Positions 1-47,475 of a stretch of 64,000 nucleotides of DNA are shown one piece after another. The position numbers and the translations under genes are program-made. Origin of the DNA: an uncultured delta proteobacterium (lineage in GTDB: Bacteria > Myxococcota_A > Polyangia > Fen-1088); contig CAWCMR010000009.1 of NCBI GenBank assembly GCA_963796685.1, positions 32,001 through 96,000 of the forward strand. The letters run 5' to 3'. The notes beneath the pieces are model-generated. The model saw nothing but the letters and a program-made list of their open reading frames with translations, made no database searches and was not told the origin of the DNA. Positions within the stretch are counted from its first letter, which is position 1. Every line of letters starts with the position of its first letter.

Positions 1-548
1 TCATTGCCAGGCTAGCCGCGATCATCCCTCCTCCTCGTCGCCATGTCGTCAGATATTCGGGGGTTATCTCCTCGCACAGCTCTCTCCGCAGCCAGGTCGT
101 CCCCGTCCCCGCCGTGGCGGCACCCGAGGAAAAGGACAAGCCTTCACTGCCGCTCTCGCACTATATTTCTTGGAGCCAGCTCCTCAAAAAGACATTCGAG
201 ATCGACACCGTCTGCCCTCGCTGCAAGAGCCCGCTGCATCTCATCGCCATGATCGAGACCGAGGACACCATCAAGAAGATTCTCAAAGCCATGGGACTGC
301 CTACCGAGGCGCCCAAACTCCGGCCTGCACGACCGCCGCCCTCGCAATCTGGTGGCGAGGGCGGAGACTGGCTGAACTGACGGCACGTCGACCAGGGCGG
401 GTTGGAGTAGACTGCCCTGCGTGCTCGAGAAAGACCCCGTCAGGCCCCAGAAACCCGGTCACGTGCGCCGTACCGACGTGATCGGGGCCAACCTAATGCG
501 GCCCGGCAGGGTTCTCAGACGCTCAAAAACCCCCTTCGAATCGCCTAT
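1..548 (+). mobile_element. IS91/ISCR-family element copy A (3' part of transposase to stop at 380, plus oriIS end)
   Basis: Near-identical to the 3' end of the other copies; ends CCCTTCGAATCGCCTAT then GGCC at 549-552. Confidence 0.9.
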
Positions 549-755
549 GGCCCGGCCGGAGCGCGAGAGATACCCAAATCCTGCCGTCGTGGACGCAACC
601 CAACCGGCCAGGCACGAGGCATGCGTCTTTCGGTGAAGGCCTCGTGCTGGCCTGCAGTCAGGCGGGAGTAGGGATGTGGCTTCCTGACCGGATCGCGGGT
701 ACCCACTTGGGCCGAGGTTCCGGCCGAGCCTGAGAAGAAGGTCGATGGGTCATGC

Positions 756-818
756 GTCCAACGCCTTGGCGTTCAGCGGCGCCGCGCAAGCGGCGTCCGC
801 TGCAACGCCTTGTTCGAC
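756..818 (-). other. attC site (integron cassette recombination site)
   Basis: Minus strand GTCGAAC-AAGGCGTTGCAGCGGACGCCGCTTGCGCGGCGCCGCTGAACGCCAAGGC-GTTGGAC: imperfect palindrome with R''/R' cores just downstream of the 832-1281 stop. Confidence 0.85.
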
Positions 819-831
819 GGCTTCGTCGTCC

Positions 832-1281
832 TCATTCCGGAGGAATCTGCGCGAGGAGTATTTGAGCGTCGTACACAAGATATCCCGGCGGAGCTTGAGC
901 GGCCTCCTGAGCGGTCACCATCGTAATGTCGAGCCGCTGACTGGGCTTGTTTATGGTAGTCACGCCGCCACCGGAGCAGTTTGTGTAGGGCCCGTTCGAG
1001 TAGCAGTTCACTGGCTGTTGGATGTTCATCTGCCTGACACTTTGGTTTTCGCCAGCAACATAGAACGCTTGATATCCGGACGCGAGCGTCAGCTCCGCGG
1101 CTCGGCGGAGAGCAAACGTATGAGCTCGTTCTGGAGACGTGTAGCCGTTCCCGGCAAAACTGACTTGCCATGCCCGCTCGCTGAGACGCAGCTCCGAATA
1201 GCCGCCTGCAATCCCAGACGCGTGGTAGCCAGTGGCACAACCGACCAACGTGCAAACGATGAGAAGGTTTCGCAGCTTCAT
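832..1281 (-). CDS. Integron cassette lipoprotein (CC0125/CC1285-like)
   Basis: Lipobox LVGC; 'VSFAGNGYT..ALRRAAELTL..GY..F' motif; lies between attI-like site and attC. Confidence 0.75.
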   Translation of the reverse strand: MKLRNLLIVCTLVGCATGYHASGIAGGYSELRLSERAWQVSFAGNGYTSPERAHTFALRRAAELTLASGYQAFYVAGENQSVRQMNIQQPVNCYSNGPYTNCSGGGVTTINKPSQRLDITMVTAQEAAQAPPGYLVYDAQILLAQIPPE

Positions 1282-1320
1282 TTGTGCATCGTCTCCGGCT
1301 TTGATCCAATGTGCAAGTCC

Positions 1321-1345
1321 GTCGAACTATCTCTTAGCCCGCGAG
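1321..1345 (-). other. Putative attI site
   Basis: Minus strand GGGCTAAGAGATAG|TTCGAC; the GTTCGAC core is complementary to the cassette's own attC R'' GTCGAAC. Confidence 0.55.
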
Positions 1346-1499
1346 GAATAACTATATCCCAGCTGCAGGCGCGGCGCAATCATCTACCGACTTCACTTCC
1401 AACATTCATGATGCCGCGTACTTAGCCGAACCAGCTGACTTCCTGGCATGGGGCGGTTGTCGGATAAAACCGATTCGTCTCGCAGGCTGGGGATGGCTA

Positions 1500-2576
1500 T
1501 CAGCGGTCCAAGGGGCTCCGCACGCCGCAGCCTCCTCGGTTGAGGACGTGTGTGTAGATCATCGTCGTGCTCACGTCGCGGTGGCCGAGCAGTTCTTGGA
1601 TGGTGCGGATGTCGTAGCCGTCTTCCAGGAGGTGGGTCGCGAAGGAATGACGCAGCGTGTGCGGGCTGACCGGTTTGGTAATGCCTGCGGCGATGGCGGC
1701 CTTGCGGACGGCGCGCTGGATGACGGTTTCGTGAAGGTGGTGGCGGTGTACATCGCCGGTTGCGGGGTCGGTATAGGTGCGCGTGGCGGGAAAGATCCAT
1801 TGCCAATTCCATTCCCGAGGGGCGCTTGGGTACTTTCTGGCCAGTGCCTCGGGCAAGAAGACGGCGCCCGCGCCCAGGGCCAGATCGGCCTCGTGTTGGG
1901 TTTTGACGGAGGCAAGATGGGAACGCAGTGTCTCGATAAGCGCGCTGGGAAGAACGGTTCGGCGGTCTTTCTGGCCTTTGCCACAACGGACGGTGATTTC
2001 GCGCCGGTCGAGGTCGATGTCTTTCACCCGAAGGCGCAGGGCTTCGAGCAAGCGTAGGCCAGCGCCATAGAGGAGTGCACAGACCAACCACACTGGGCCT
2101 TGTAAACGCGCGAGCACATCACGCACCTCCGGTCGGCCAAGCACGACGGGGACCTTCTTGGGTCGTTTGGCGTGAACAAGGTCGCCCAACCATTCCAGCT
2201 CGCGTCCGAGTACCTGTTGATAGAGAAAAAGCAGTGCGGCCAGCGCCTGGTTCTGTGTGGAAGCGCTGACTTTCGCTTCGCTGGCCAGGTTGGAGAGGTA
2301 GGCGCCAACCTCGACACTGCTCATCTCGTCAGGGTGGCGCTTGCTGTGAAATAGGATGAACCGGCGGATCCAGCCGACATAGGCCTTTTCGGTTCGCCTG
2401 CTGTAGTGCCGGGCACGTAGTCCAGCGCGCACTCGGTCAAGCAAACGCGGCGGCCGGGCCGAATCCTGGCCGGCATGTCCGGTTCCTGGCCGCACAAGTG
2501 GGATGATGGTTGCGCCTTGGCTGGAATCTTGGTCGTCAATTCGCATGGACAACCAACATTGCGAAGACCATGCCAT
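1500..2576 (-). CDS. intI: Integron integrase (start codon uncertain, about 2546-2576)
   Basis: [31 protein letters not shown], IntI-specific insert [40 protein letters not shown]. Confidence 0.93.
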
Positions 2577-3160
2577 TGCCGGCTCCCAGCGCCAGCGTGC
2601 GCCAGTTCTCCTCGGAGTTCATGCCGGCGTCGCCCACGAACACGCAACGGCCCAGTCGCCAGCCGCGCAAGTCCTGTTTCACCTTCTCGACCGTGGTTAC
2701 GTCCACGGTGTTTCCCGGGAAGACCCACGACCGCACGGGCAGGCCGTCCCGCGTGACCGCCAGACCCACCACCAACTGTGGAACGTCGCCGCGACCATTC
2801 TTCGAATGTCCGCGTTTTCGCAACGCCTCGTATTTCTGTCGACCTGCCAACTTGTTCCCGAGCCTAGGCGCGCTGTCCTCTTCGTCGATCTCGAAATGCA
2901 GCGACGTCGTGTCATAGAAAATGACGTCTACGTCTGCGTTCATCAAGTCCGCCATGCGGAAGAAAACCTCGCGCTCGACGTGCGCCTTGTGTGCCTCCAG
3001 AAAATCCATCGCCCGGTAAAGGTGCTGCAATTCCAGCTTCTCCTTGTCCGGCAGAAACACTTCTTCGGGCAGCCACTGTTGTCGGCAGTAAAGCTTCGAG
3101 CACGGCTTGCTGGTCCGGTTAGCCACCATCGCAAACAACGCGCGCTCGAACGGCTGCTCA
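2575..3160 (-). pseudogene. IS1634-family transposase internal fragment
   Basis: LYRAMDFL, VIFYDTTS, GHSKNGRGD.PQLVVGL, FPGNTVD, VGDAGM motifs; truncated at both ends. Confidence 0.8.
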
Positions 3161-3226
3161 GGGAGAGCACGGAAGGCGGAGGAGGGCGCGGAGGGCGGAG
3201 AAGCTCGGGAAGGTTTTGCCGACCGT

Positions 3227-4977
3227 GGCCGTGCCTCACCCACACAACGCCCGACACCCGCATCACGCACCTTCCGTGACCTGCTTGCCGAGAACCCTCC
3301 TTCATGGAGGCAGCCGCATGCGCAAAACCTGCGACCGGCTACACCTATGCCCGCCGGGAGCCGGAGAAGACCGCGCTCTTCCAGGTGCTCCAGCAGCACC
3401 TGCTCACCTTCGAGCAAGAGTGGACCGACAAGTCCGACGGCCGCACGCTGCCCAGCTTCGTCACCGACGAGCTACACGACTTTCTAGGGTGCGGAATCTT
3501 GGCGCGAGGCTTCGCACAATTCTTGTGCAAAACCTGCCACGAGCGGTACGTTGTGGCCTGGAGCTGTAAGGGTCGTGGCTTCTGTCCGAGCTGCGGAGGC
3601 AGACGCATGAACGCGGGTGCGCTGACTCTGGTCGATCACGTGCTGCCCGAAGTGCCCATCCGACAATTCGTGCTCACCCTGCCTTTCCCGCTGAGATTTC
3701 CCTTGGCCTTCGACGGGAAATTGCTGGGCCAAGTCCTGCGCATCTTCATCGACACCGTCGCGTCCAACTATCGCAAGCGCCTGGCAGATCGGGGCATCCC
3801 CGACGGCGAGTGCGGCGCCGTCACGGTCATCCAGCGCGCCAACAGCGACCTGCGTCTCTCACCGCATTTTCACGTTCTCCAGCTCGATGGAGCGTACGCC
3901 CCTGGGCCCGACGGCGGTGCGCCCATCTTCCACCCGGCTCCGGAACTTACCCAAGAGGACATCCTTGCCATCGTCGCGCGCGCCAGTAAGCGCATCCTCC
4001 GCTTCCTCCAACGTCGCGGGGTCATCACCCTGGTGACCGCGCCAGGCGACGGCGAGATCACCGTCGTCACCGACGAGACCATCGGCGAGAAGGATCCGCT
4101 CCTGGCTCGCTTGTTGGCCGCCGCCACCGCTGGCGCCTCGCCTGCCGGCCCTGCGCACAAGCGGGCTCCCGTGCGCATCGTGCTCGACCCTGGCGCCACG
4201 CCCGTGGCCAAGGGCAAACTATGCGGCCAGCAAGCAGGCTTCAACCTGCATGCTCAAACCAAAGTCGCCGCCAACGACAAGAAGGGTCGCGAAAACCTGT
4301 GCAAGTACATCTTGCGCCCGCCTCTCGCCAACGACCGCCTCAAGATCCTCGACGACAAAACCGTCAGGCTCGACTTCAAGAAGCCCTGGTCGGATGGCAC
4401 ATCGTCGGTCGACCTTGCGCCGCTCGCCCTCATTGCGAGGCTAGCCGCGATCATCCCTCCTCCTCGTCGCCATGTCGTCAGATATTCGGGGGTTATCTCC
4501 TCGCACAGCTCTCTCCGCAGCCAGGTCGTCCCCGTCCCCGCCGTGGCGGCACCCGAGGAAAAGGACAAGCCTTCACTGCCGCTCTCGCACTATATTTCTT
4601 GGAGCCAGCTCCTCAAAAAGACATTCGAGATCGACACCGTCTGCCCTCGCTGCAAGAGCCCGCTGCATCTCATCGCCATGATCGAGACCGAGGACACCAT
4701 CAAGAAGATTCTCAAAGCCATGGGACTGCCTACCGAGGCGCCCAAACTCCGGCCTGCACGACCGCCGCCCTCGCAATCTGGTGGCGAGGGCGGAGACTGG
4801 CTGAACTGACGGCACGTCGACCAGGGCGGGTTGGAGTAGACTGCCCTGCGTGCTCGAGAAAGACCCCGTCAGGCCCCAGAAACCCGGTCACGTGCGCTGC
4901 GCAGACGTGATCGGGGCCGACCTGACGCGTCCTGGCAGGGTTCTCAGACGCTCAAAAACCCCCTTCGAATCGCCTAT
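3227..4977 (+). mobile_element. IS91/ISCR element copy B (left end at GGCC inferred; right end is oriIS)
   Basis: About 1.75 kb repeated unit; oriIS-like TTCGAATCGCCTAT followed by GGCC; no terminal IRs or target duplication. Confidence 0.88.
3304..4809 (+). CDS. IS91/ISCR rolling-circle (HUH) transposase, 501 aa
   Basis: Zn-binding CxxC..SCKGRGFCPSC, HUH motif PHFH, KYILRPP (single catalytic Tyr, ISCR-like), RYSG, C-terminal CPRC. Confidence 0.93.
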   Translation: MEAAACAKPATGYTYARREPEKTALFQVLQQHLLTFEQEWTDKSDGRTLPSFVTDELHDFLGCGILARGFAQFLCKTCHERYVVAWSCKGRGFCPSCGGRRMNAGALTLVDHVLPEVPIRQFVLTLPFPLRFPLAFDGKLLGQVLRIFIDTVASNYRKRLADRGIPDGECGAVTVIQRANSDLRLSPHFHVLQLDGAYAPGPDGGAPIFHPAPELTQEDILAIVARASKRILRFLQRRGVITLVTAPGDGEITVVTDETIGEKDPLLARLLAAATAGASPAGPAHKRAPVRIVLDPGATPVAKGKLCGQQAGFNLHAQTKVAANDKKGRENLCKYILRPPLANDRLKILDDKTVRLDFKKPWSDGTSSVDLAPLALIARLAAIIPPPRRHVVRYSGVISSHSSLRSQVVPVPAVAAPEEKDKPSLPLSHYISWSQLLKKTFEIDTVCPRCKSPLHLIAMIETEDTIKKILKAMGLPTEAPKLRPARPPPSQSGGEGGDWLN

Positions 4978-5319
4978 GGCCATACGCACAGCTTGCAGCG
5001 ACTCTTCACCATCCTTGAGCCCCGTCTGAAGTTGGTTACCCCTGACGAAGAGATTCCGGAGGATGTTCGATCTTCGGTATTCCAGCTTCACAATATGGAT
5101 CCCACCGGAGAGGTGTTTCGATATCCACGAAGAAGGGGCAAGGATGAGCCAATCTTCAATACGCAGACCTGGTTTGATATCGGTCGGATCGTTGAAAGGC
5201 TCGGACAATCGATTCGGTTCCTCTCCGATGGCATCGGAGGATGGTTGGCCTACGAAATAGGCTCGATGAACGACTACATCTCCTTCCTCGAATCTGAGAG
5301 CTACGACTGGAACGAGTAG
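4978..5319 (+). pseudogene. 5'-truncated HEPN-like protein
   Basis: Frame begins at the GGCC junction: GHTHSL...HNMDPTGEVFRYP, resembling the HEPN C-terminal half. Confidence 0.5.
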
Positions 5320-6980: not shown

Positions 6981-7460
6981 TCACCGCCCACCTTCCCCGC
7001 CACACAGCCGCAGCCATCGCGCCTCAACCATCGCCGTTGTCGCACTCGGGGCGACGTGGGTGTACCGCTCGGTAGACGCGCTATCGCTGTGCCCGAGCAG
7101 CGTCCCGATGACCTTCTGGCCGGCGCCCATGACGGCGTAGCTGCTGCCGGCGGTGTGGCGGGCGCCGTGGCTCGTGATGCGGCGGACGCCGGCCTCTTTC
7201 GCGAGGTCGCGATACCAGCGATTCAAAACCTTGTTCGAGAGCACGCCGCCACGAGGATCCGGGAAGAGAAGCTGGTCCTCGGTCCGCAGCATGAACCGCT
7301 GCAACTCGTCGGCCAGCGCTCGCGGGATGACCTGAAATCTGGTGCGCTTGTTCTTCGGCGTGGACACGATCGTCCTCGCCTGGGAGCGACGAATCCAGAG
7401 CCCTGGTGTTTGAAGATCGAGGTCTACCTTCGTCAACGCCCTCACCTCGCTGAGGCGCAC
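6981..7460 (-). pseudogene. Tyrosine recombinase C-terminal fragment
   Basis: RLSEV, TPKN, HGARH, LLGH, TERYTH; N-terminus missing. Confidence 0.8.
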
Positions 7461-7594
7461 TGCCCGGCATACTGCGCGCTTGGAGAAAATGTCACGCCGA
7501 TGTGGACGATTTCCCGACGGGCCAAGTCCACGATCACGAAGCAGCAACGCACAGAGCTTGATTAAATTGGCTCGATTGACAAGACGGTCAAGTA

Positions 7595-8668
7595 ATGCTA
7601 TTTAGTCAAGCGATGGAAGCGCGGCGTGAGCATGACCGTCTGGCAGGGAAGGTGCCCGACATGCTGGCCGAGCTCCTTGGGGTCGATCACGCCGCACTGG
7701 AAGTGCAGGCCGAACCCGCGTGCGGGGCCGCTCTGGTCGTCACCGCGGGCCCGACCTTCGTCGTCGAGGTGAAGTGGTCCACCAGCGCCGGCGCGCTGGC
7801 CGCGACCGCGGAACAGGCCAAGGAGCATGCTTCCCGCCTTCGTCGCAAAACGGTTGTCCCGCTCGTGGCAGTCCCCTTCATGGGTGAAGTCGGCCGCAAG
7901 ACCTGTGAGGATGCAGGCGTCGCATGGATCGACCTGTCCGGCAACGCGCGTATCATCGCCCCGGGCATCCGCGTGATCGTCGAGGGGAAGCCCAACCGGT
8001 TCAAGACCGCCGGGCGGCCACGGAACCTGTTCGCCCCCAAGAGCTCGCGCATCATCCGCTGGTTGCTGATCAACGCCGGGAAGTACCTCACCCAACGCGA
8101 GATCACCCGCGCCACCGGCCTCGACGAAGGCATGGTCAGTCGTTTGGTCGCGCGACTAACGGCGGACGAGTACCTGATTCGCGACGAGCAGGGCGGCGTA
8201 CGTGCAAAATCGCCTGAGCTCTTGCTGGACGCCTGGCGCGAGGCGGACGAGTTCTCGAAGCACACCGTGCATCGCGGGCATGTCGCAGCTCGCTCGGGAG
8301 ACCTGCTCCTACGCCTTGTCGTCGACACCCTCACCGAGCGCGGACACGAGCACGCGGCCACGGGACTTGCCGCTGCCTGGGCGATGACCCGTTTTGCCTC
8401 GTTCCGCATCACGACTGTCTACCTGCCGACGGATCCATCGCCCGAGCTGATCGAACAGCTCGGCTTCCGAGCGGATGAGCGTGGGGCGAACCTGTGGTTG
8501 GTCGTCCCGAGCGACCCGGGCGTGTTCCAGGGCGCCGTCGACAAGGATGGCATCAGGTGCGTCCATCCCGTCCAGGTTTACGTCGATCTCAAGGCTCACC
8601 CTGAGCGGGCCAGCGAAGCCGCAGAGCGCCTGCGAGCCGAGCTGCTGACCTGGAGGCACGATGGCTGA
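7595..8668 (+). CDS. AbiEi-like (type IV TA antitoxin-type) protein
   Basis: WIDLSGNA, HTH TQREI, LLDAW, C-terminal PVQVYVDL..ERASEAAERL; overlaps the next gene. Confidence 0.75.
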   Translation: MLFSQAMEARREHDRLAGKVPDMLAELLGVDHAALEVQAEPACGAALVVTAGPTFVVEVKWSTSAGALAATAEQAKEHASRLRRKTVVPLVAVPFMGEVGRKTCEDAGVAWIDLSGNARIIAPGIRVIVEGKPNRFKTAGRPRNLFAPKSSRIIRWLLINAGKYLTQREITRATGLDEGMVSRLVARLTADEYLIRDEQGGVRAKSPELLLDAWREADEFSKHTVHRGHVAARSGDLLLRLVVDTLTERGHEHAATGLAAAWAMTRFASFRITTVYLPTDPSPELIEQLGFRADERGANLWLVVPSDPGVFQGAVDKDGIRCVHPVQVYVDLKAHPERASEAAERLRAELLTWRHDG

Positions 8669-9608
8669 CAAACCGAAGCGAGCCTCGGAGTACGGGAGCG
8701 CGCAGGTCGCGCTCGTGCGGTCGACCTGCCTCTACGTCGCGACCAAGCTCGGCGACATGATGGACGATGTCGTGGTCGTCGGCGGGCTCGTCCCGTCTTT
8801 GCTCATCGACCAAGGTGCATTGCCCGAGGGCGTGGCCGCGCATGTCGGCACGATGGATCTCGACGTCGGGCTCAAGCTGGCCCTGCTCGACGAAGGACGC
8901 TATCGCACGCTGACCGAGCGCCTGCGCGACGCCGGCTTCGTGCCCGACCAAACCGACGAGGGACGGCCGGCGCGGCAGCGTTGGCGAGCTGCCAGCCTCG
9001 GCGCGGTGACGGTGGACTTCTTGATCCCGCCGTCTATGCCGAACGACCAGGGCGGCAAGCTCCGCAACATCGAGAAGGACTTCGCTGCCATCATCGCGCC
9101 CGGTTTGAAGCTAGCCTTCCAGGACCGTCGACGCGTCCGCATCGAGGGCAAGACCATCTCCGGCGAGAAGGCAGCACGCGCGGTGTGGGTCTGCGGGCCA
9201 GGGGCTTTCGTGGTGCTCAAAGCGCTCGCCTTTCTTGGTAGAGGCGAGAACAAGGACGCCTACGACCTCTACTACCTGATCCGGAACTTCGGTGCCGGCA
9301 TCGGTGAGGTAGCTGCCTGCCTGCAACCGCTGTTGGCCGACGATGAGGCCAAGAAGGCTGTCCAGATCCTCCGCGACGACTTCCTCCTCCACGACGGCAT
9401 CGGTCCCCGTCGGGTCGCGGAGTTCCTGCAAGGCGAGGCCGACGACGAGATCCAGGCCGACGTGGTCGGCTTCGTACGGGAGTTGCTGAACCGCTGCACC
9501 GCCATCGACTACGTCGAGTCGTTCGGCATGGCCGCCATCGAACGCTACGAGGCCGAGCTGCGATCACGTGACCGTGTACCTCGACGTCAAGGACGGTGTC
9601 GTCCGTGA
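8661..9608 (+). CDS. AbiEii-like nucleotidyltransferase; C-terminus replaced by SufS-derived sequence after 9496
   Basis: VVVGG, HVGTMDLD, LKALA, KDAYDLY; from 9497 identical to the suf passenger. Confidence 0.75.
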   Translation: MADKPKRASEYGSAQVALVRSTCLYVATKLGDMMDDVVVVGGLVPSLLIDQGALPEGVAAHVGTMDLDVGLKLALLDEGRYRTLTERLRDAGFVPDQTDEGRPARQRWRAASLGAVTVDFLIPPSMPNDQGGKLRNIEKDFAAIIAPGLKLAFQDRRRVRIEGKTISGEKAARAVWVCGPGAFVVLKALAFLGRGENKDAYDLYYLIRNFGAGIGEVAACLQPLLADDEAKKAVQILRDDFLLHDGIGPRRVAEFLQGEADDEIQADVVGFVRELLNRCTAIDYVESFGMAAIERYEAELRSRDRVPRRQGRCRP

Positions 9609-9915
9609 CATCAGCTTCCAAGGCGAGGGCTGCGCCATCGCCAGGGCGTCGGCGTCCATGATGACGTCGGTGGTGAAGGGAAAGTCCTTGGCCGACGCCT
9701 CCGAGACCTTCAAGCGCTTCCGCCAGATGATCACCGGCGGCCAGGATCCCTGCTTCGACCTCGAAGACCTGGGCAAGCTCGCCGCGTTCTCCGACGTAAG
9801 CGCGTTCCCCGTGCGGGTCAAGTGCGCAAGCCTCGCCTGGCACACCTTGAACGCGGCCATGCACGAGACCACGACCGAGCCCACCAGCGGCAGCGAGCCC
9901 AGCAAGGAGCCCTAA
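9561..9915 (+). pseudogene. sufU: 5'-truncated SufU (fused to sufS fragment by internal deletion)
   Basis: DHVTVYL..FQGEGCAIARASASMMT..FPVRVKCASLAWH; first NPxCG motif missing. Confidence 0.85.
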
Positions 9916-9917
9916 AA

Positions 9918-10313
9918 GTGACGGCGGCCCCCAATCCCCAGCCCGCACCCGACCCGCCCCCCGACCCGCCATCGGGCTCCACCGCCAACGATGCGGCCAC
10001 CGCCCAGTTGGAGCGCCTGGTGTGGCAGGAGCTGCGCGAGTGCTACGACCCGGAGATCCCCGTCAACATCGTGGAGCTGGGGCTCGTCTACGCCATGAGG
10101 ACCGAGCCCCTGCCCGAGGGCGGCCACCGGGTCGAGGTCCTCATGACCGTGACCTCTACTGCCTGTGGCATGTCCGAGATCCTGCGCAGCGAGGCCGACG
10201 CGCGCATTCGCAAGCTGCCCGGCGTGGCGCAGGTCGAGGTCGCCATCACCTTCGACCCGACCTGGACCCCCGAGCTCATGAGCGACGACGCGCGCATGAT
10301 GCTGAATTTGTGA
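9918..10313 (+). CDS. sufT: SufT/DUF59 Fe-S assembly protein
   Basis: LRECYDPEIPVNIVELGLVY..MT.T...C..FDPTWTPELMS; GTG start after sufU stop. Confidence 0.85.
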   Translation: MTAAPNPQPAPDPPPDPPSGSTANDAATAQLERLVWQELRECYDPEIPVNIVELGLVYAMRTEPLPEGGHRVEVLMTVTSTACGMSEILRSEADARIRKLPGVAQVEVAITFDPTWTPELMSDDARMMLNL

Positions 10314-10382
10314 CTGGAGAGAGCGCAGAGGGCGGAGGAGGGCGCGGAGGGCGGAGAAGCTCGGGAAGGTTTTGCCGACCGT

Positions 10383-12133
10383 GGCCGTGCCTCACCCACA
10401 CAACGCCCGACACCCGCATCACGCACCTTCCGTGACCTGCTTGCCGAGAACCCTCCTTCATGGAGGCAGCCGCATGCGCAAAACCTGCGACCGGCTACAC
10501 CTATGCCCGCCGGGAGCCGGAGAAGACCGCGCTCTTCCAGGTGCTCCAGCAGCACCTGCTCACCTTCGAGCAAGAGTGGACCGACAAGTCCGACGGCCGC
10601 ACGCTGCCCAGCTTCGTCACCGACGAGCTACACGACTTTCTAGGGTGCGGAATCTTGGCGCGAGGCTTCGCACAATTCTTGTGCAAAACCTGCCACGAGC
10701 GGTACGTTGTGGCCTGGAGCTGTAAGGGTCGTGGCTTCTGTCCGAGCTGCGGAGGCAGACGCATGAACGCGGGTGCGCTGACTCTGGTCGATCACGTGCT
10801 GCCCGAAGTGCCCATCCGACAATTCGTGCTCACCCTGCCTTTCCCGCTGAGATTTCCCTTGGCCTTCGACGGGAAATTGCTGGGCCAAGTCCTGCGCATC
10901 TTCATCGACACCGTCGCGTCCAACTATCGCAAGCGCCTGGCAGATCGGGGCATCCCCGACGGCGAGTGCGGCGCCGTCACGGTCATCCAGCGCGCCAACA
11001 GCGACCTGCGTCTCTCACCGCATTTTCACGTTCTCCAGCTCGATGGAGCGTACGCCCCTGGGCCCGACGGCGGTGCGCCCATCTTCCACCCGGCTCCGGA
11101 ACTTACCCAAGAGGACATCCTTGCCATCGTCGCGCGCGCCAGTAAGCGCATCCTCCGCTTCCTCCAACGTCGCGGGGTCATCACCCTGGTGACCGCGCCA
11201 GGCGACGGCGAGATCACCGTCGTCACCGACGAGACCATCGGCGAGAAGGATCCGCTCCTGGCTCGCTTGTTGGCCGCCGCCACCGCTGGCGCCTCGCCTG
11301 CCGGCCCTGCGCACAAGCGGGCTCCCGTGCGCATCGTGCTCGACCCTGGCGCCACGCCCGTGGCCAAGGGCAAACTATGCGGCCAGCAAGCAGGCTTCAA
11401 CCTGCATGCTCAAACCAAAGTCGCCGCCAACGACAAGAAGGGTCGCGAAAACCTGTGCAAGTACATCTTGCGCCCGCCTCTCGCCAACGACCGCCTCAAG
11501 ATCCTCGACGACAAAACCGTCAGGCTCGACTTCAAGAAGCCCTGGTCGGATGGCACATCGTCGGTCGACCTTGCGCCGCTCGCCCTCATTGCGAGGCTAG
11601 CCGCGATCATCCCTCCTCCTCGTCGCCATGTCGTCAGATATTCGGGGGTTATCTCCTCGCACAGCTCTCTCCGCAGCCAGGTCGTCCCCGTCCCCGCCGT
11701 GGCGGCACCCGAGGAAAAGGACAAGCCTTCACTGCCGCTCTCGCACTATATTTCTTGGAGCCAGCTCCTCAAAAAGACATTCGAGATCGACACCGTCTGC
11801 CCTCGCTGCAAGAGCCCGCTGCATCTCATCGCCATGATCGAGACCGAGGACACCATCAAGAAGATTCTCAAAGCCATGGGACTGCCTACCGAGGCGCCCA
11901 AACTCCGGCCTGCACGACCGCCGCCCTCGCAATCTGGTGGCGAGGGCGGAGACTGGCTGAACTGACGGCACGTCGACCAGGGCGGGTTGGAGTAGACTGC
12001 CCTGCGTGCTCGAGAAAGACCCCGTCAGGCCCCAGAAACCCGGTCACGTGCGCTGCGCAGACGTGATCGGGGCCGACCTAACGCGTCATGGCAGGGTTCT
12101 CAGACGCTCAAAAACCCCCTTCGAATCGCCTAT
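10383..12133 (+). mobile_element. IS91/ISCR element copy C
   Basis: Same unit as copy B; GGCC at 12134-12137. Confidence 0.88.
10460..11965 (+). CDS. IS91/ISCR transposase
   Basis: Identical 501-aa translation. Confidence 0.93.
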   Translation: MEAAACAKPATGYTYARREPEKTALFQVLQQHLLTFEQEWTDKSDGRTLPSFVTDELHDFLGCGILARGFAQFLCKTCHERYVVAWSCKGRGFCPSCGGRRMNAGALTLVDHVLPEVPIRQFVLTLPFPLRFPLAFDGKLLGQVLRIFIDTVASNYRKRLADRGIPDGECGAVTVIQRANSDLRLSPHFHVLQLDGAYAPGPDGGAPIFHPAPELTQEDILAIVARASKRILRFLQRRGVITLVTAPGDGEITVVTDETIGEKDPLLARLLAAATAGASPAGPAHKRAPVRIVLDPGATPVAKGKLCGQQAGFNLHAQTKVAANDKKGRENLCKYILRPPLANDRLKILDDKTVRLDFKKPWSDGTSSVDLAPLALIARLAAIIPPPRRHVVRYSGVISSHSSLRSQVVPVPAVAAPEEKDKPSLPLSHYISWSQLLKKTFEIDTVCPRCKSPLHLIAMIETEDTIKKILKAMGLPTEAPKLRPARPPPSQSGGEGGDWLN

Positions 12134-12193
12134 GGCCCATCGAGTGCAACCGCGGGCTGGGAGTAGCCGATCTCAGATCGCTCCACACGCGTT

Positions 12194-34646: not shown

Positions 34647-34865
34647 GAGCGACGCGCGTAGCGGCGGAAGTGTGTAAGGCCATTTTTGCCGTCTGTGTAA
34701 TTGTGATTATGCCGTCCCGTGGTCAGGGTGGCACTTCAAATGGCACGATGAGTGTGCATTTAAGCGTCTGCATCCACTGCCCTGCCTGGCGATTTTGGGT
34801 TGACATCTCTACTTGCAACGGCGTTAATAGAGTTACACTACCTTCCGGTCACCCTGGAGACGCCC

Positions 34866-35635: not shown

Positions 35636-37692
35636 GATCCGAAGGACATCAGAAAGTCACCACCAGCCACCTCAAGCGGGATGCCTATCTGTACGTCAGA
35701 CAATCGACAGTCCGGCAGGTCATTGAGAATACCGAGAGCACGCAGCGGCAGTATGCTCTCCGCCAGCGTGCCGTTGCTTTGGGCTGGCCAAACGATCGGG
35801 TCATCGTCATCGACACAGATCTCGGCCAGTCAGGAGCTTCCGCGGTCGACCGCGTGGGTTTCCAGAAGCTCGTGGCCGAGGTCGGGATGGGGCACGCTGG
35901 TATCGTGCTTGGCTTGGAGGTCTCTCGACTGGCGCGCAATTCCACTGACTGGCACCGATTGCTCGAGATCTGCGCACTGACCGACACCTTGATTCTCGAC
36001 GAGGATGGCATCTACGACCCCGCGCACTTCAACGACCGGCTGTTGCTCGGGCTCAAGGGAACGATGAGTGAAGCCGAGTTGCACGTCTTGCGAGCTCGCC
36101 TGCGCGGCGGCATCATCAACAAGGCGCGCCGGGGCGAATTGCATTGTCGCCTACCTGTTGGCTTCGTCTACGACGGTGGCGGGCGCGTCGTCCTTGATCC
36201 GGACAAGCAAGTGCAAGAGAGCGTGCGATTGCTGTTCGCGACTTTCGCACGAACAGGGGCAGCGCATGCCACGCTCAAGTACTTCCGACAAGAGAAGCTG
36301 CTATTCCCCACACGTCTGGGTGCCGGGGCGAGCAAGGGTGAGCTGGCTTGGACGCCGCTCAGCCTGGCACGCACTGCCAGCATCCTGCACAACCCGTGGT
36401 ATGCGGGCGCGTACGCATTCGGTAGAAACCGCTGGCGAAAAAGACCGGACGGAAGCAACTCCTGCCGACGAGAACGCTTACCGCGCGCCGAGTGGCTTGC
36501 TCTGCTTCGGGATGCCCACCCCGCGTACATCTCATGGCAAGAGTACGAGCGCATCGACCAGCGCTTGCAGGCCAGTGCCAAGTCCCTCGGCTGGGAGCGA
36601 GGCCGGGAATCTCCTCGTGAGGGTCCAGCCCTGTTGCAAGGACGCACGATCTGCGGACTCTGCGGCTGCCGAATGGGCGTTCACTACAACACTCGACGCT
36701 CAGGTCAGCTCATTCCCAACTATGTGTGCTCCGGACACGGCCGTCTCCTTGGCGACGGCTCATGCCAGAGCATTCTGGGAACGGAAATCGACGCAGCCGT
36801 CAGCAAGTTGCTGGTCGAGGCCGTGACACCGATGGCGCTCGAAATGACCCTCGCCATCCAGCAGGAGATCGCGGCCCGCCTCGACGAGGCCGATCGGCTG
36901 CGCCACCGCCAAGTCGAGCGAGCCCAGTACGAGGCTGACCACGCCCGCCGTCGCTACATGCAGGTGGATGGCGCCAACCGGTTGGTCGCAGATTCACTGG
37001 AAGCAGAGTGGAACACCAAGCTGCGTGCGCTTTCCAAGGCCCAGGAGGAATACCTGCGCCAGCACGAGGCCGACCGACTCACCGTCGGCAAGGATGAGCG
37101 CCAGCGCATCCTCGCTCTCGTCACGGATTTCCCCGCCGTCTGGCGTGACCCCAATACGCCCCAGCGCGAGCGCAAGCGCATACTGGCGCTTCTGATCGAA
37201 GACATCACCCTGATCAAGCGGCGCGAAATCACCGTGAAGATCCGCTTCCGCGGCGGTGCAACCACTACCTTGACACTGCCTCGTCCACTCACGCCCCAGC
37301 AACTGCGTGCCACACACCCCGAAGTCCGTCAGCAGATCGACGCCCTCCTCGACGAGTACACCAACGCTCAGGTCGCCAACCAACTTAACAAGCAACAGAT
37401 GCGCACCGGCACTGGCGAGTCCTTCAATGCCGTGAGCGTCCAGTGGGTACGCTTCTCGGCCAAGCTCAAGAGTCTCAAGGAACGACTCATCGAAGCTGGC
37501 TGGCTGACAAGTAAGCAGGTCGCTGCCCTGCTCGGCGTCAGCCTTTCGACCGTCAGTAGTTTGCGCAACAAGGGGCGCCTCAAGGGACGTATATGCAGCG
37601 ACAAAGGCGAGTGGCTATACTGGCCATCCGACATCCCCACAAGTCCTTCACCAACACCAACTGTTACATCCACTGCGAGAGGTGCAATATGA
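35632..37692 (+). CDS. Large serine recombinase (resolvase, recombinase, Zn-ribbon, C-terminal HTH)
   Basis: AYLYVRQST, SRLARN, CGLCG..YVC, coiled coil. Confidence 0.92.
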   Translation: MRSEGHQKVTTSHLKRDAYLYVRQSTVRQVIENTESTQRQYALRQRAVALGWPNDRVIVIDTDLGQSGASAVDRVGFQKLVAEVGMGHAGIVLGLEVSRLARNSTDWHRLLEICALTDTLILDEDGIYDPAHFNDRLLLGLKGTMSEAELHVLRARLRGGIINKARRGELHCRLPVGFVYDGGGRVVLDPDKQVQESVRLLFATFARTGAAHATLKYFRQEKLLFPTRLGAGASKGELAWTPLSLARTASILHNPWYAGAYAFGRNRWRKRPDGSNSCRRERLPRAEWLALLRDAHPAYISWQEYERIDQRLQASAKSLGWERGRESPREGPALLQGRTICGLCGCRMGVHYNTRRSGQLIPNYVCSGHGRLLGDGSCQSILGTEIDAAVSKLLVEAVTPMALEMTLAIQQEIAARLDEADRLRHRQVERAQYEADHARRRYMQVDGANRLVADSLEAEWNTKLRALSKAQEEYLRQHEADRLTVGKDERQRILALVTDFPAVWRDPNTPQRERKRILALLIEDITLIKRREITVKIRFRGGATTTLTLPRPLTPQQLRATHPEVRQQIDALLDEYTNAQVANQLNKQQMRTGTGESFNAVSVQWVRFSAKLKSLKERLIEAGWLTSKQVAALLGVSLSTVSSLRNKGRLKGRICSDKGEWLYWPSDIPTSPSPTPTVTSTARGAI

Positions 37693-38056
37693 AAAGCGAT
37701 CCTTCGAGATCGACACCGTCTGCCCTCGCTGCAAGAGCCCGCTGCATCTCATCGCCATGATCGAGACCGAGGACACCATCAAGAAGATTCTCAAAGCCAT
37801 GGGACTGCCTACCGAGGCGCCCAAACTCCGGCCTGCACGACCGCCGCCCTCGCAATCTGGTGGCGAGGGCGGAGACTGGCTGAACTGACGGCACGTCGAC
37901 CAGGGCGGGTTGGAGTAGACTGCCCTGCGTGCTCGAGAAAGACCCCGCCAGGCCCCAGAAACCCGGTCACGTGCGCTGCGCAGACGTGATCGGGGCCGAC
38001 CTAACGCGTCCCGGCAGGGTTCTCAGACGCTCAAAAACCCCCTTCGAATCGCCTAT

Positions 38057-42950: not shown

Positions 42951-43250
42951 CCACGAAGCCGATCACGAACGTGAGCGCATCCGTGCGTGCGAGACTCCTG
43001 GAACTCTCGCGCAAGAATGGTGAACAGTTCAATTTCCTCCTGACCCGCTACGCCCTTGAACGGCTGTTGTACCGGCTGGGCAGCACGAACCGACAAAGAT
43101 TCGTCCTCAAGGGTGCGATGTTGTTTGCCCTCTGGACCACGACAGCGCGACATCGCCCGACGGTGGACATGGACCTCCTGGGCTACGGTCCCCCGAGTCT
43201 CGACAACATCAGGTCAATCTTTCAGACTGTAGCCTCTCTCGCCACGACCG
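42947..43250 (+). pseudogene. 3'-truncated AbiEii toxin
   Basis: ASVRARL, YALERLLYRL, FVLKGAMLF, RPTVDMDLL; ends at the SDR junction. Confidence 0.8.
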
Positions 43251-43258
43251 GCGCTCCT

Positions 43259-44245
43259 TCAGGACACGGCGCTCAAGGTTGCTGCGGAGGAGAAGTCGAC
43301 GCCGGAGACCTTGACGACGGCCTGCCACGCGGCTTCCTGGCTGGCGCGATCGTAGAGGTGTGGCTGGCGCTGCACCTCAGTTGGGCCTGAGAACTTCCCT
43401 TTCGCCGAGGCGAAGAATTGCCCTGAGACGTCGGTTCCGAACTCCGACGCCTGGAGGTACCGACGGGCCGCGGTCTCCGGCGTCTGATTCATGCCGGGAA
43501 TGAGGTTCACGATTGGGATAAACAGATACTTCAACAACGGGCCAGCGTTTCGCACCACCTTGGTGGCGGTCGCCCCACCGGGCGAGACAGCGTACACGGC
43601 CATGCCGGAGGGGAGCCGGCGCGCCAGCGCCGCGACCCACCAAGCGATAATAAGCTTCGCGTCGGCATACGTATTGTTGGGCACGTACTTCACGTTTGGC
43701 CCGTTGCGAATCAGGGCTTCGATAGCGGCGGTCCGGTCTCCCCGGAAGTATTTGGCCGCGAAGGCTGACACATCGGTGTAGCTGAACATCGGCACGCCCC
43801 CACGGGCAGGTTCCGCGCCGGCGATGACAATCCGCGCGTTGGGGCTCAGCAGGTTGGCGCGGAGCAAACCGATAGTTAGTTGATGATGGCCGATGAGCGG
43901 GGCCTGAGCTTCCTCGATGCCCGCCGCGGTGATCACGCGCTTCTTGCCTGGGACCATCCCTGCATTGAGCAGCAGGAAATCGATCGGCTGACCCCGCTTG
44001 ACAAGCTCGGCAACGGCGGACTGAACGCTGGACGGCGCGTCCAGATCCAACTCCAGCGGCGTAAAAATCACTGTTTTGTTGTCAGCCGCGAGTTGAGCGG
44101 CCGCTTGCTGGGCCCCGGCCAGGCTGCGCCCGGTGACGATGATCTCGTGCCAGCCCTCTCCGGCGAGCAGGCGGGCCGCCGCATGGCCGAGCCCGGAAGT
44201 GGCGCCGGTGACGAAAGCGATCGAATGTTCCATAGGCGTCTCCAT
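43259..44245 (-). CDS. Short-chain dehydrogenase/reductase
   Basis: TGATSGLG, LNAG, YADAK, VSPG. Confidence 0.88.
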   Translation of the reverse strand: METPMEHSIAFVTGATSGLGHAAARLLAGEGWHEIIVTGRSLAGAQQAAAQLAADNKTVIFTPLELDLDAPSSVQSAVAELVKRGQPIDFLLLNAGMVPGKKRVITAAGIEEAQAPLIGHHQLTIGLLRANLLSPNARIVIAGAEPARGGVPMFSYTDVSAFAAKYFRGDRTAAIEALIRNGPNVKYVPNNTYADAKLIIAWWVAALARRLPSGMAVYAVSPGGATATKVVRNAGPLLKYLFIPIVNLIPGMNQTPETAARRYLQASEFGTDVSGQFFASAKGKFSGPTEVQRQPHLYDRASQEAAWQAVVKVSGVDFSSAATLSAVS

Positions 44246-44359
44246 GGTGAAGGGTGAAAGCCGAGTCGTGAGGCCCCGCGAGGCCAGTAACCGGCTTGCT
44301 AATTTAGAACTATTCAGTTATATATTGGTGCGAGAAACTGTCAAGGAGTTTTGAACCAA

Positions 44360-44945
44360 ATGATTCAAAATGCCGCTAGGCCGCGGGGTCGACCACGCAG
44401 CTTCGACGAGACGGAGGCGCTGGAAAAGGCGACTCAGGTGTTCTGGTCGAAAGGCTACGACGGAGTGACGATTGACGATCTCGTCGCCGGGATGGGTGTG
44501 GGACGGCCGAGCCTGTATGCCGTCTTCGGGGACAAGCGTGCGATATTCTTGCGCGCCCTCAAGGCGTATGCAGAGAGGAAGGGCGCATCAGCCGCGAAGG
44601 CACTCCTTTCGCCACAGAGTCTTCGCGACTCGATCGCGAGCTTTCTGAGGTACGCCGTCGAAAGTGCGACCGAGAAAGGGTCCGCTCGGGGCTGCCTTAT
44701 GATGTGCGTCGCGCCGCTGGTGAACGACGCTGAGGTCCGGCAGTTCCTACAGAACGCAGCGGCTGGCGGCGTGGCGCTAGTGGAACGTCGTTTCCGGGAC
44801 GGGATCAGCGCGGGAGAAATCCCATCTGACTTTCCCGTGGCCACGCGCGCAACCCAGGTCACGGATTTAGCGCGTGGGCTGACCATGCGTGCGCAGATAG
44901 GCACGCCACGCAAGACGCTTCTCAAAGAGGCTGAGGAAGCCGCCC
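44360..44945 (+). CDS. TetR-family regulator (stop codon lost; frame runs on into sufT)
   Basis: RGRPRSFD..FWSKGYDG..RPSLYAVFGDK, GCLM. Confidence 0.85.
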
Positions 44946-45018
44946 ACAGAACGACCACGGTCGTGCCCATCGCGTCGGCGGCGCTGTATTGTGGCTGCGT
45001 TTGGGGAGCGAAGCTCAC

Positions 45019-45167
45019 ACCTGGGCAAGCTCGCCGCGTTCTCCGACGTAAGCGCGTTCCCCGTGCGGGTCAAGTGCGCAAGCCTCGCCTGGCACACCTT
45101 GAACGCGGCCATGCACGAGACCACGACCGAGCCCACCAGCGGCAGCGAGCCCAGCAAGGAGCCCTAA
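45019..45167 (+). pseudogene. sufU: sufU 3' fragment
   Basis: Identity to the passenger begins at 45019. Confidence 0.8.
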
Positions 45168-45169
45168 AA

Positions 45170-45565
45170 GTGACGGCGGCCCCCGATCCCCAGCCCGCAC
45201 CCGACCCGCCCCCCGACCCGCCATCGGGCTCCACCGCCAACGATGCGGCCACCGCCCAGTTGGAGCGCCTGGTGTGGCAGGAGCTGCGCGAGTGCTACGA
45301 CCCGGAGATCCCCGTCAACATCGTGGAGCTGGGGCTCGTCTACGCCATGAGGACCGAGCCCCTGCCCGAGGGCGGCCACCGGGTCGAGGTCCTCATGACC
45401 GTGACCTCTACTGCCTGTGGCATGTCCGAGATCCTGCGCAGCGAGGCCGACGCGCGCATTCGCAAGCTGCCCGGCGTGGCGCAGGTCGAGGTCGCCATCA
45501 CCTTCGACCCGACCTGGACCCCCGAGCTCATGAGCGACGACGCGCGCATGATGCTGAATTTGTGA
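45170..45565 (+). CDS. sufT: SufT/DUF59
   Basis: Same as other copies with one N-to-D change. Confidence 0.85.
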   Translation: MTAAPDPQPAPDPPPDPPSGSTANDAATAQLERLVWQELRECYDPEIPVNIVELGLVYAMRTEPLPEGGHRVEVLMTVTSTACGMSEILRSEADARIRKLPGVAQVEVAITFDPTWTPELMSDDARMMLNL

Positions 45566-45634
45566 CTGGAGAGAGCGCAGAGGGCGGAGGAGGGCGCGGA
45601 GGGCGGAGAAGCTCGGGAAGGTTTTGCCGACCGT

Positions 45635-47385
45635 GGCCGTGCCTCACCCACACAACGCCCGACACCCGCATCACGCACCTTCCGTGACCTGCTTGCCGAG
45701 AACCCTCCTTCATGGAGGCAGCCGCATGCGCAAAACCTGCGACCGGCTACACCTATGCCCGCCGGGAGCCGGAGAAGACCGCGCTCTTCCAGGTGCTCCA
45801 GCAGCACCTGCTCACCTTCGAGCAAGAGTGGACCGACAAGTCCGACGGCCGCACGCTGCCCAGCTTCGTCACCGACGAGCTACACGACTTTCTAGGGTGC
45901 GGAATCTTGGCGCGAGGCTTCGCACAATTCTTGTGCAAAACCTGCCACGAGCGGTACGTTGTGGCCTGGAGCTGTAAGGGTCGTGGCTTCTGTCCGAGCT
46001 GCGGAGGCAGACGCATGAACGCGGGTGCGCTGACTCTGGTCGATCACGTGCTGCCCGAAGTGCCCATCCGACAATTCGTGCTCACCCTGCCTTTCCCGCT
46101 GAGATTTCCCTTGGCCTTCGACGGGAAATTGCTGGGCCAAGTCCTGCGCATCTTCATCGACACCGTCGCGTCCAACTATCGCAAGCGCCTGGCAGATCGG
46201 GGCATCCCCGACGGCGAGTGCGGCGCCGTCACGGTCATCCAGCGCGCCAACAGCGACCTGCGTCTCTCACCGCATTTTCACGTTCTCCAGCTCGATGGAG
46301 CGTACGCCCCTGGGCCCGACGGCGGTGCGCCCATCTTCCACCCGGCTCCGGAACTTACCCAAGAGGACATCCTTGCCATCGTCGCGCGCGCCAGTAAGCG
46401 CATCCTCCGCTTCCTCCAACGTCGCGGGGTCATCACCCTGGTGACCGCGCCAGGCGACGGCGAGATCACCGTCGTCACCGACGAGACCATCGGCGAGAAG
46501 GATCCGCTCCTGGCTCGCTTGTTGGCCGCCGCCACCGCTGGCGCCTCGCCTGCCGGCCCTGCGCACAAGCGGGCTCCCGTGCGCATCGTGCTCGACCCTG
46601 GCGCCACGCCCGTGGCCAAGGGCAAACTATGCGGCCAGCAAGCAGGCTTCAACCTGCATGCTCAAACCAAAGTCGCCGCCAACGACAAGAAGGGTCGCGA
46701 AAACCTGTGCAAGTACATCTTGCGCCCGCCTCTCGCCAACGACCGCCTCAAGATCCTCGACGACAAAACCGTCAGGCTCGACTTCAAGAAGCCCTGGACG
46801 GATGGCACCTCGTCGGTCGACCTTGCGCCGCTCGCCCTCATTGCCAGGCTAGCCGCGATCATCCCTCCTCCTCGTCGCCATGTCGTCAGATATTCGGGGG
46901 TTATCTCCTCGCACAGCTCTCTCCGCAGCCAGGTCGTCCCCGTCCCCGCCGTGGCGGCACCCGAGGAAAAGGACAAGCCTTCACTGCCGCTCTCGCACTA
47001 TATTTCTTGGAGCCAGCTCCTCAAAAAGACATTCGAGATCGACACCGTCTGCCCTCGCTGCAAGAGCCCGCTGCATCTCATCGCCATGATCGAGACCGAG
47101 GACACCATCAAGAAGATTCTCAAAGCCATGGGACTGCCTACCGAGGCGCCCAAACTCCGGCCTGCACGACCGCCGCCCTCGCAATCTGGTGGCGAGGGCG
47201 GAGACTGGCTGAACTGACGGCACGTCGACCAGGGCGGGTTGGAGTAGACTGCCCTGCGTGCTCGAGAAAGACCCCGTCAGGCCCCAGAAACCCGGTCACG
47301 TGCGCCGTACCGACGTGATCGGGGCCAACCTAATGCGGCCCGGCAGGGTTCTCAGACGCTCAAAAACCCCCTTCGAATCGCCTAT
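45635..47385 (+). mobile_element. IS91/ISCR element copy F
   Basis: Same unit; 3' allele shared with copy A; GGCC at 47386-47389. Confidence 0.88.
45712..47217 (+). CDS. IS91/ISCR transposase (PWTDG allele)
   Basis: 501 aa, one substitution versus copies B-D. Confidence 0.93.
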   Translation: MEAAACAKPATGYTYARREPEKTALFQVLQQHLLTFEQEWTDKSDGRTLPSFVTDELHDFLGCGILARGFAQFLCKTCHERYVVAWSCKGRGFCPSCGGRRMNAGALTLVDHVLPEVPIRQFVLTLPFPLRFPLAFDGKLLGQVLRIFIDTVASNYRKRLADRGIPDGECGAVTVIQRANSDLRLSPHFHVLQLDGAYAPGPDGGAPIFHPAPELTQEDILAIVARASKRILRFLQRRGVITLVTAPGDGEITVVTDETIGEKDPLLARLLAAATAGASPAGPAHKRAPVRIVLDPGATPVAKGKLCGQQAGFNLHAQTKVAANDKKGRENLCKYILRPPLANDRLKILDDKTVRLDFKKPWTDGTSSVDLAPLALIARLAAIIPPPRRHVVRYSGVISSHSSLRSQVVPVPAVAAPEEKDKPSLPLSHYISWSQLLKKTFEIDTVCPRCKSPLHLIAMIETEDTIKKILKAMGLPTEAPKLRPARPPPSQSGGEGGDWLN

Positions 47386-47475
47386 GGCCTTGTCAACTCA
47401 ACCCGCGTGTCTGCCGGCGTGCCAAGCAGATCCGTCTTCAGCGGCGATGTCGGATCGGGTGTACGATGGCGCGTC

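Follow-up and report, generated by a model that had tools for sequence, protein, structure and literature searches.

The stretch analysed here, referred to as the window, comprises 64,000 nucleotides of contig CAWCMR010000009.1 (C9; positions 32,001–96,000) from an uncultured soil bacterium and carries six copies of an insertion sequence (IS), a putative distant member of the ISCR/IS91-type rolling-circle elements. We propose, with a rough probability of 0.55, that this element has recently spread within a variable genomic island by one-ended transposition, copying itself from an exact right end and usually overrunning the left one. The corresponding assembly (G000) totals 7.31 Mb in 26 contigs; the bin is 88.6% complete with 6.5% contamination.

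An earlier note, made from the window alone, placed the right ends of the six copies at 548, 4977, 12133, 15559, 38056 and 47385, and window self-BLAST together with direct reading shows all of these positions to be exact. Each copy terminates in ...CTTCGAATCGCCTAT followed by GGCC (i.e., ...CGCCTAT|GGCC; 6/6). The array is real and is stronger than that note stated: with seven further copies on C9 beyond the window, the whole assembly contains 13 such right ends rather than six, all on the plus strand of C9 and spanning positions 3,765–130,898 (about 127 kb). The proposed tabulation of the four nucleotides after CGCCTAT across all genome copies returned GGCC in 13/13, which is not attributable to chance because GGCC occurs at a frequency of only 0.0088 per position in C9:1–131000. 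The co-oriented arrangement with a constant oriIS-type end and GGCC thus holds for every copy in the assembly. The claims that the DNA after GGCC differs at every copy and that target duplications are missing also stand, as no direct repeats flank any copy in the 13 printed junction pairs. Copies are 99.2–100% identical to each other; the open reading frame (ORF) of 501 amino acids (aa) is intact in 11 of the 13, one copy is interrupted and one is a 129-bp stump. The plus strand of C9 has a negative GC skew in 20 of 22 bins, fitting insertion into the lagging-strand template.

All copies in the window lie on the plus strand. Copy 1 enters it with its right-hand 548 bp (1–548; GGCC at 549–552), the full unit being the 1,755-bp core at C9:30794–32548. 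Copy 2 (3163–4977) is a 1,815-bp unit in which 60 bp of upstream DNA precede the core, starting at 3223; its transposase gene tnpA occupies 3304–4809 and GGCC follows at 4978–4981. The 2,637-bp unit of copy 3 (9497–12133) comprises a 3′ fragment of sufS, sufT/DUF59 (9822–10313) and the core from 10379, with tnpA at 10460–11965 and GGCC at 12134–12137. Copy 4 (13402–15559; 2,158 bp) contains a partial sufT and the core from 13805 (tnpA 13886–15391; GGCC 15560–15563). Copy 5 (29184–38056), a unit of at least 5,522 bp, carries three transduced genes, a 5′-truncated sufS from about 31724, sufT (32394–32885) and the core, its tnpA starting at 33032 and being split by an insertion. Copy 6 (45019–47385; 2,367 bp) consists of a sufS piece, sufT and the core from 45631 (tnpA 45712–47217; GGCC 47386–47389).

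The right end is common to all units while their left reach varies, so that the left ends form a nested series. With the longest copy as reference, the 12 units extend leftwards for 1755, 1756, 1815, 2158, 2367, 2523, 2637, 2835, 2982, 2982, at least 5522 and at least 5522 bp. We place the core terminus at 1755/1756, because two independent copies stop there; the other 10 of the 12 units bear between 60 and at least 3,767 bp derived from upstream of a parent copy. This extra DNA is one and the same sequence cut at varying points. Its passenger consists of a 5′-truncated sufS-like gene (Aminotran_5 profile positions 198–285 of 371) and a complete sufT/DUF59 gene, to which the two longest units add three more genes, located in the left part of copy 5 by profile search: those for a 187-aa unknown protein (29229–29792), a weakly Lar-like protein of 288 aa (29802–30668) and a 377-aa metallophosphatase (30617–31750).

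The copy 5 unit accordingly begins at 29184 and not near 32 kb, and it duplicates C9:3765–9286 with 99.87% identity. A relative, G001, is syntenic with C9:3535–6239, crossing the duplication boundary at 3765; since this synteny extends past the boundary, C9:3765–9286 is the parental locus and copy 5 its transduced product. The nested left ends bear the signature of read-through of the terminator end (terIS), i.e., one-ended transposition. Terminator read-through places the demonstrable cargo upstream of the transposase gene and not after GGCC. The view that the DNA following GGCC is captured cargo is therefore not supported, as the only DNA that can be demonstrated to have been transduced, in the nested left ends and the 5.5-kb duplicate, lies upstream.

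The 1,755-bp core encodes a 501-aa HUH transposase matching PF04986 Y2_Tnp (78 bits) and PF14319 Zn_Tnp_IS91 (56.8 bits), both over the cutoff, with an HFH motif at residues 188–190. The best curated match is NCBIfam ISCR clade Ia, which aligns over the full length (residues 7–489) with 291 bits against a model cutoff of 925; the NCBIfam transpos_IS91 equivalog gives 88.6 bits against 125. The proposed IS91/ISCR identity is borne out by the two domains and by this best match, and the element is, as judged from its protein, probably a distant ISCR/IS91-type rolling-circle insertion sequence scoring under both curated cutoffs. A pair of catalytic tyrosines is expected in the IS91/ISCR family; a motif scan of the 501-aa protein for the spacing YxxxY found none. 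Among 31 inverted repeats none forms a terminal arm pair, and the hairpins near the ends, two of which occur in the minimum-energy fold, fold no better than shuffled sequences (z-scores −0.15 and −1.21).

Related IS copies were found throughout the genus, and elements with near-identical ends are followed by GGTC, GGCC, GGAC or GGGC. The relative G001 has four plus-strand copies with ragged left ends within 55 kb of its contig C7, and another relative, G004, has several local clusters of same-strand copies. At some IS ends of G004 (L029, L032, L034), short tandem terminus remnants follow, each with its own GGTC. Within G000, a sister IS91-type element forms a second array on contigs C5 (5.5–43 kb) and C4 (9.4–11.2 kb), again on one strand (+). 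Its transposase is 71% identical to that of the C9 element and its sufS′–sufT passenger 92–94%, the passenger being less diverged than the transposase; left extents again differ, and several copies are internally deleted. Two degenerate IS91-family transposase fragments were detected by tblastn in the window at 16458–16628 (−) and 17110–17271 (+), corresponding to C9:48458–48628 and C9:49110–49271.

Thirty-one variable columns divide the 12 units on C9 into two haplotypes: H1 (units a, b, i and k, copy 6 and copy 1) and H2 (copies 3, 4 and 2, units m and j, and the right end of copy 5). Each lineage of single-nucleotide polymorphisms (SNPs) has its own nested length series. Copy 5 is a recombinant, because its left 5.2 kb are of the ‘a’ type (99.87% identical) and its right end belongs to H2. 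The copies thus exchange parts and, with them, flanks.

The origin of GGCC could be addressed at four right joints for which the right-hand DNA also occurs in another context: copy j of C9 against a C5 paralogue (99.4% identical), a copy on G004:C8 against a G004:C23 paralogue (99.6%), a copy on G004:C14 against a G000:C6 orthologue (85%) and copy 4 of the window against a G010:C27 orthologue (89%). In all four, homology begins at, or at most 2 nt from, the first base after the tetranucleotide. At the position of the tetranucleotide itself the other context reads TGCG, TCCA, ACGA or ACCC, not GGCC or GGTC, and GGNC is found in none of the four. The interpretation of GGCC as a target or closure site supplied by the cargo is thus not supported by these four comparisons. 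With moderate confidence, the simplest reading would be that GGNC represents the last four bases of the moving unit and travels with the element. Two pairs of fragments, C9:114006–114788 with C5:137846–138628 (783 bp) and L045:11701–11959 with L055:7800–8058 (259 bp), are recent paralogues with 99.4–99.6% identity; both begin exactly at the base after the IS end and tetranucleotide, and their starts may mark the nick position.

On the left side, the statement that no flank continues across a copy was borne out where it is testable, at copies 2, 3 and 5. The left flank of copy 3 is an AbiEi/AbiEii pair (7595–9496, +; profile search and metagenome contigs), the second gene of which is cut two codons before the stop of a relative. 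Comparison with this 77% identical relative left the joint undecided, and it was resolved by a metagenome loose end at 9497: in contigs of two soil runs AbiEii continues CGGTAGATGAG..., the natural continuation being CGGT. This continuation is absent from the whole assembly and is also unlike the right flank of copy 3. To the left of copy 2 lies an internal fragment (residues 144–344 of 604) of an IS1634/IS4-like DDE transposase (2554–3156, −; profile and sequence search), other parts of which occur nowhere in the assembly. The ‘amylase tail’ described after copy 5 is supported by a frame open across the joint, a Malt_amylase_C match (E 5e-4) and 56% identity between the tail and the C-terminal end of a 614-aa ORF from a relative; no head for it was found on the far side of the copy 5 unit. 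The TetR gene to the left of copy 6 stops at 44943, and four other contexts continue with GAATTGG, AAATTGG or GACTTGG. Between this point and the left end of copy 6 lies a 75-bp filler (44944–45018, +), an internal piece of an 888-aa ORF of G002:C25 (98.7% identical) whose natural continuation in G002 is CGCCGT. The natural continuation is therefore not GGNC in any of the three left flanks for which it could be read (AbiEii, TetR and the filler).

Contiguous left and right flanks in a relative had been named as an observation that would refute the array interpretation. The flanks of copies 1–6 and of three copies outside the window were searched for empty sites in 12 same-genus genomes and up to 30 relatives, and no left–right join was found. 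Window positions 12134–13401 had a match in 0 of the 12 genus genomes, and the right flank of C9:103527 matched weakly in one of the 12. The reciprocal search, in which flanks of relatives' IS copies (L010–L012, L016, L017 and L068) were compared by BLAST with G000, likewise revealed no empty site. In-silico excision of 13 copies left several open frames, as expected by chance at 62% G+C, and none was backed by homology; a 252+113-aa frame across copy 2 was rejected, as the minus strand carries the real gene at this place. Parts of the window occur in soil and peat metagenome runs. Short-read contigs from four soil runs neither bridged nor skipped an IS, did not cover window positions 12284–13401 and did not include the joint 9496|9497; these are absences only and were not counted as evidence.

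We suggest the following scheme for the spread of the element. Copying would start at the exact right end, run back through tnpA and usually overrun a weak terminator (10 of 12 units), so that the mobilised cargo would lie on the left of the element. GGCC would move along with the element rather than come from the landing site, and the ragged end would be sealed by unspecific host repair or template switching, as the lack of a motif and the 75-bp filler suggest. Recombination between near-identical direct copies might then swap or delete flanks, leaving the two sides mismatched. The shared orientation could result from strand-specific integration, from inter-copy recombination or from both. 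Passages of PMC13181058 state that IS91-family termination fails in 1–14% of events, mobilising adjacent DNA, and that only bottom-strand circles of IS91 insert. Because IS91 inserts bottom-strand circles, and given the GC skew of C9, the common orientation fits strand-specific integration; it fits circle integration followed by recombination at least as well. One-ended transposition by IS801 has moved more than 40 kb, as described in part of PMC6354349, and a passage of PMC5737581 discusses random termination for environmental IS91 elements.

Several points weigh against this interpretation. A travelling GGCC contradicts the IS91 paradigm, stated in passages of PMC13181058, in which the tetranucleotide belongs to the target, and the evidence for it is thin: four comparisons, two of them at 85–89% identity. 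The occurrence of GGTC, GGCC, GGAC and GGGC at near-identical related ends could also mean a variable target. The 11 left ends share no tetranucleotide, inside or outside, in donor or recipient context, whereas the one-ended events of IS801 mentioned in part of PMC6354349 end at GAAC or CAAG; the ragged ends of the array do not stop at such target-like tetranucleotides. Purely unspecific sealing is a poor fit to the observation that GC terminates 6 of the 11 left flanks, as TTCGC in three cases and as TGC in the other three. This preference of the C9 units did not recur in the four G001 copies. No circle, empty site or transposition event was observed. Clustering and the common orientation of all 13 copies are more directly explained by circles that recombine into resident copies. 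Finally, the linkage of the modules rests on one assembly.

This circle model, put forward in the earlier note, holds that one-ended events produced circles of the IS plus adjacent DNA, and that homologous recombination with a resident copy then added these circles, each bringing one IS-bounded module; a scheme of this kind has been proposed for ISCR1 in complex class 1 integrons. It accounts jointly for the orientation (13/13), the confinement to one 127-kb stretch and the mismatched flanks at copies 2, 3 and 5. Inter-copy recombination is real, as the hybrid copy 5 attests, circles of IS801 and IS91 with adjacent DNA are documented in passages of the literature, and in two genomes an IS end lies just upstream of a WYL–cas module, albeit with different joints. 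However, the model predicts a cargo-borne GGCC at closure, and the other contexts lack GGNC in 4/4. The assembly contains no donor copies of the modules, save for short pieces of 568, 783 and 1,694 bp, and the only proven transduction (copy 5) has its cargo to the left of the IS and borders on unrelated DNA, not on a resident copy. No circles were seen. We regard this explanation as unlikely.

Ordinary independent insertions into GGCC targets of a dispensable island, later blurred by deletions and other elements, would agree with the use of tetranucleotide targets without duplications reported in passages on the IS91 family, and the island is indeed crowded with other elements and gene fragments. 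Nevertheless, we disfavour this possibility as quite improbable: the left flanks naturally continue with CGGT, GAAT or CGCC instead of GGNC (3/3), the right-flank DNA lacks GGNC elsewhere (4/4), the continuation of AbiEii is missing from the entire assembly and all 13 copies point the same way. A still smaller chance is given to an assembly artefact, in which the assembler walked through the 1.8–3 kb repeat between loci or strains and strung unlinked modules into a false array. Such passage through a repeat would preserve orientation and generate mismatched flanks and hybrid copies, the bin is fragmented and not free of contamination, no IS was bridged by the soil contigs, and the relatives with similar arrays are also metagenome-assembled genomes. 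Yet the copies differ in left extent, in private SNPs and in one insertion, so they are not collapsed repeats; the expected true flank partners are absent from the whole assembly; and within a 1.87-Mb contig of G001 there is a comparable array that likewise has a copy interrupted in this way. Recent local spread by one-ended transposition is the explanation we retain.

We may speculate further on the chemistry of the joints. In this ISCR-like lineage the transposase may make a single exact joint, cutting just outside its own ...CCTAT–GGNC terminus and fusing this end to arbitrary DNA, with host repair closing the far end. Its nick could break replication forks, seed the 783-bp and 259-bp fragments and the 75-bp filler, and delete the landing site, so that each jump would be a rearrangement. 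The arrays would then be the growth rings of a Helitron-like gene shuffler gathering defence and accessory modules. We put this forward tentatively, as an idea clearly more likely to be wrong than right.

Profile searches bore out the gene content previously listed for the window, namely an integron integrase, AbiE pairs, secreted repeat proteins, reductases and type I-C CRISPR-Cas. The integron integrase (1500–2576, −; TIGR02249, 473 bits against a cutoff of 265) belongs to a neighbouring integron and not to the IS array; its expected attI/cassette side is occupied by the IS1634-like fragment and copy 2. The attribution of a ‘HEPN fragment’ was not confirmed, as ORF 745–1425 has no Pfam or NCBIfam match. 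A 568-bp segment overlapping this region (760–1327) is 100% identical to C8:661283–661850; it contains a minus-strand small lipoprotein-like ORF and starts at an attC-like inverse core. Repeats of this attC-like type, 70–90 nt long, are present on many contigs and in relatives, so several integron cassette arrays seem to be present in the genome. A truncated integrase gene begins with an 88-bp piece (7457–7544) that recurs with 90–95% conservation in several genomes and in one contig from a metagenome; by ARAGORN, which predicted 0 genes in the window, this piece is no tRNA, and it gave 0 Rfam matches at threshold.

Two AbiE pairs are found in the window, together with RCC1-repeat proteins, a 784-aa adhesin-like protein, a Vgb-lyase-family propeller, a peptidase A4, an AraC regulator with two aldo-keto reductases and an SDR+TetR module. 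The latter (43250–44944) has a 96% identical paralogue on C8 and 92% identical copies in three other genomes, all with the same left boundary; truncation at the TetR stop is peculiar to the window copy. To the right of copy 6, the flanking DNA (47407–57402, +; profile search) encodes a WYL regulator, a DUF1016/YhcG nuclease and a complete type I-C cas operon (cas3, cas5, cas8c/Csd1, cas7, cas4, cas1 and cas2). Homology to the WYL module of relatives starts at 47455 in five other contexts, about 66 nt past the GGCC of copy 6. At L045 (G004:C8) an IS end followed by GGTC precedes the homologous WYL, DUF1016, cas and CRISPR block by 26 nt; in the window the spacing is GGCC plus 64 nt, a different joint. 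A CRISPR array read from its 37-nt repeat, ending GTGGATTGAAAC, follows at 57586–64000 (+) and extends to C9:100538, the next IS unit beginning 6 nt past the last repeat. It is split at 59967–63489 by an rve transposase (471 aa, 61115–62530, −) and an AAA_22 ATPase (271 aa, 60303–61118, −).

Besides this rve/AAA_22 element, the island harbours the IS1634-like fragment cut at both ends, an IS110 fragment, a DDE_Tnp_1 gene and a serine-recombinase element. Many modules, including SDR+TetR and WYL, have sharp boundaries that recur in copies from other genomes independently of the IS. Overall, the window forms a patchwork and a sink for mobile elements, in which the genes after GGCC are neighbours and not demonstrated captures; the ‘integron-like archive’ is thus best treated as a hypothesis.

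The serine-recombinase element is the 3,346-bp insertion in tnpA of copy 5 (34357–37702, +), encoding a 330-aa ORF (34643–35635) and a 686-aa large serine recombinase (35632–37692), with TTCGA on both sides. The same insertion occurs at the identical site in L021 (G001:C7:91945–95290) with 99.3% identity, the host IS copies being only about 81% identical, and each of the two genomes (G000 and G001) has a single copy. By this comparison it resembles a site-specific element that uses this IS as its target and was recently transferred between species.

ISCR elements are blamed for assembling resistance regions, yet in passages of the literature their rolling-circle transposition of adjacent genes is only presumed. 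Gene mobilisation by one-ended transposition is of a known kind and is seen here in unusually clear form: in this array one ISCR-like element has left a natural record of numerous recent events, with graded terminator overruns, a parent–offspring pair carrying three genes and joints readable base by base. Should it be confirmed that GGCC travels and that the far end is closed without specificity, this branch would fall outside the accepted IS91 target model, and the element would be a handy model for gene shuffling by rolling-circle elements; failing that, the array is a clear though unremarkable example of one-ended transposition in an island rich in mobile elements. The earlier interpretation was half right: the IS91/ISCR array does mobilise genes, but what has provably been captured sits on the opposite side of the element. 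A non-exhaustive literature search turned up no paper describing arrays with over ten IS91/ISCR copies in one orientation, nor any on elements of this type in Myxococcota.

With the IS91 family (IS91, IS801, IS1294) the element shares an HUH domain with an N-terminal zinc domain, the lack of inverted repeats and target duplications and, following passages on that family, a constant oriIS end downstream of tnpA preceding a tetranucleotide, with the other end often overrun and carrying upstream DNA. It differs in a transposase below the curated IS91 cutoff, in the extent of overrun (10 of 12 units here, against the 1–14% of events given in that part of PMC13181058) and in a tetranucleotide missing from the other context of the flanking DNA (4/4). 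ISCR elements and complex class 1 integrons provide the best family match, an ill-defined terminator side and repeated copies with different adjacent genes, and an integron integrase lies 0.6 kb from copy 2. However, our element is distant from ISCR, sits in a soil host with no resistance-gene context seen, has 13 copies in one array and lacks the flanking duplicated conserved segments that would mark circle integration.

The analogy with an integron, as an ordered store of modules, was drawn in the earlier note, and a true IntI gene and attC-like repeats are nearby. Nevertheless, IS-bounded modules have nothing in common but the IS end and GGCC on one side and no sequence at all at their other joints, they have no dedicated site-specific integrase, and only upstream DNA is shown to have been captured by the IS. 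Helitrons, as portrayed in part of PMC4778049, likewise use an HUH enzyme and bypass one end, which leads to gene-fragment capture and to patchworks of fragments beside the element; their protein architecture and domain of life differ, so the resemblance is functional only. A closer environmental parallel is found in the IS91-flanked catabolic clusters of Sphingobium herbicidovorans MH, for which passages of PMC5737581 describe several IS91 copies punctuating gene modules, with one-ended transposition and an IS91-borne circle proposed or observed. Those passages concern few plasmid copies and a tandem duplication of one module, whereas the array on C9 combines 13 co-oriented copies with unrelated neighbours and graded left ends.

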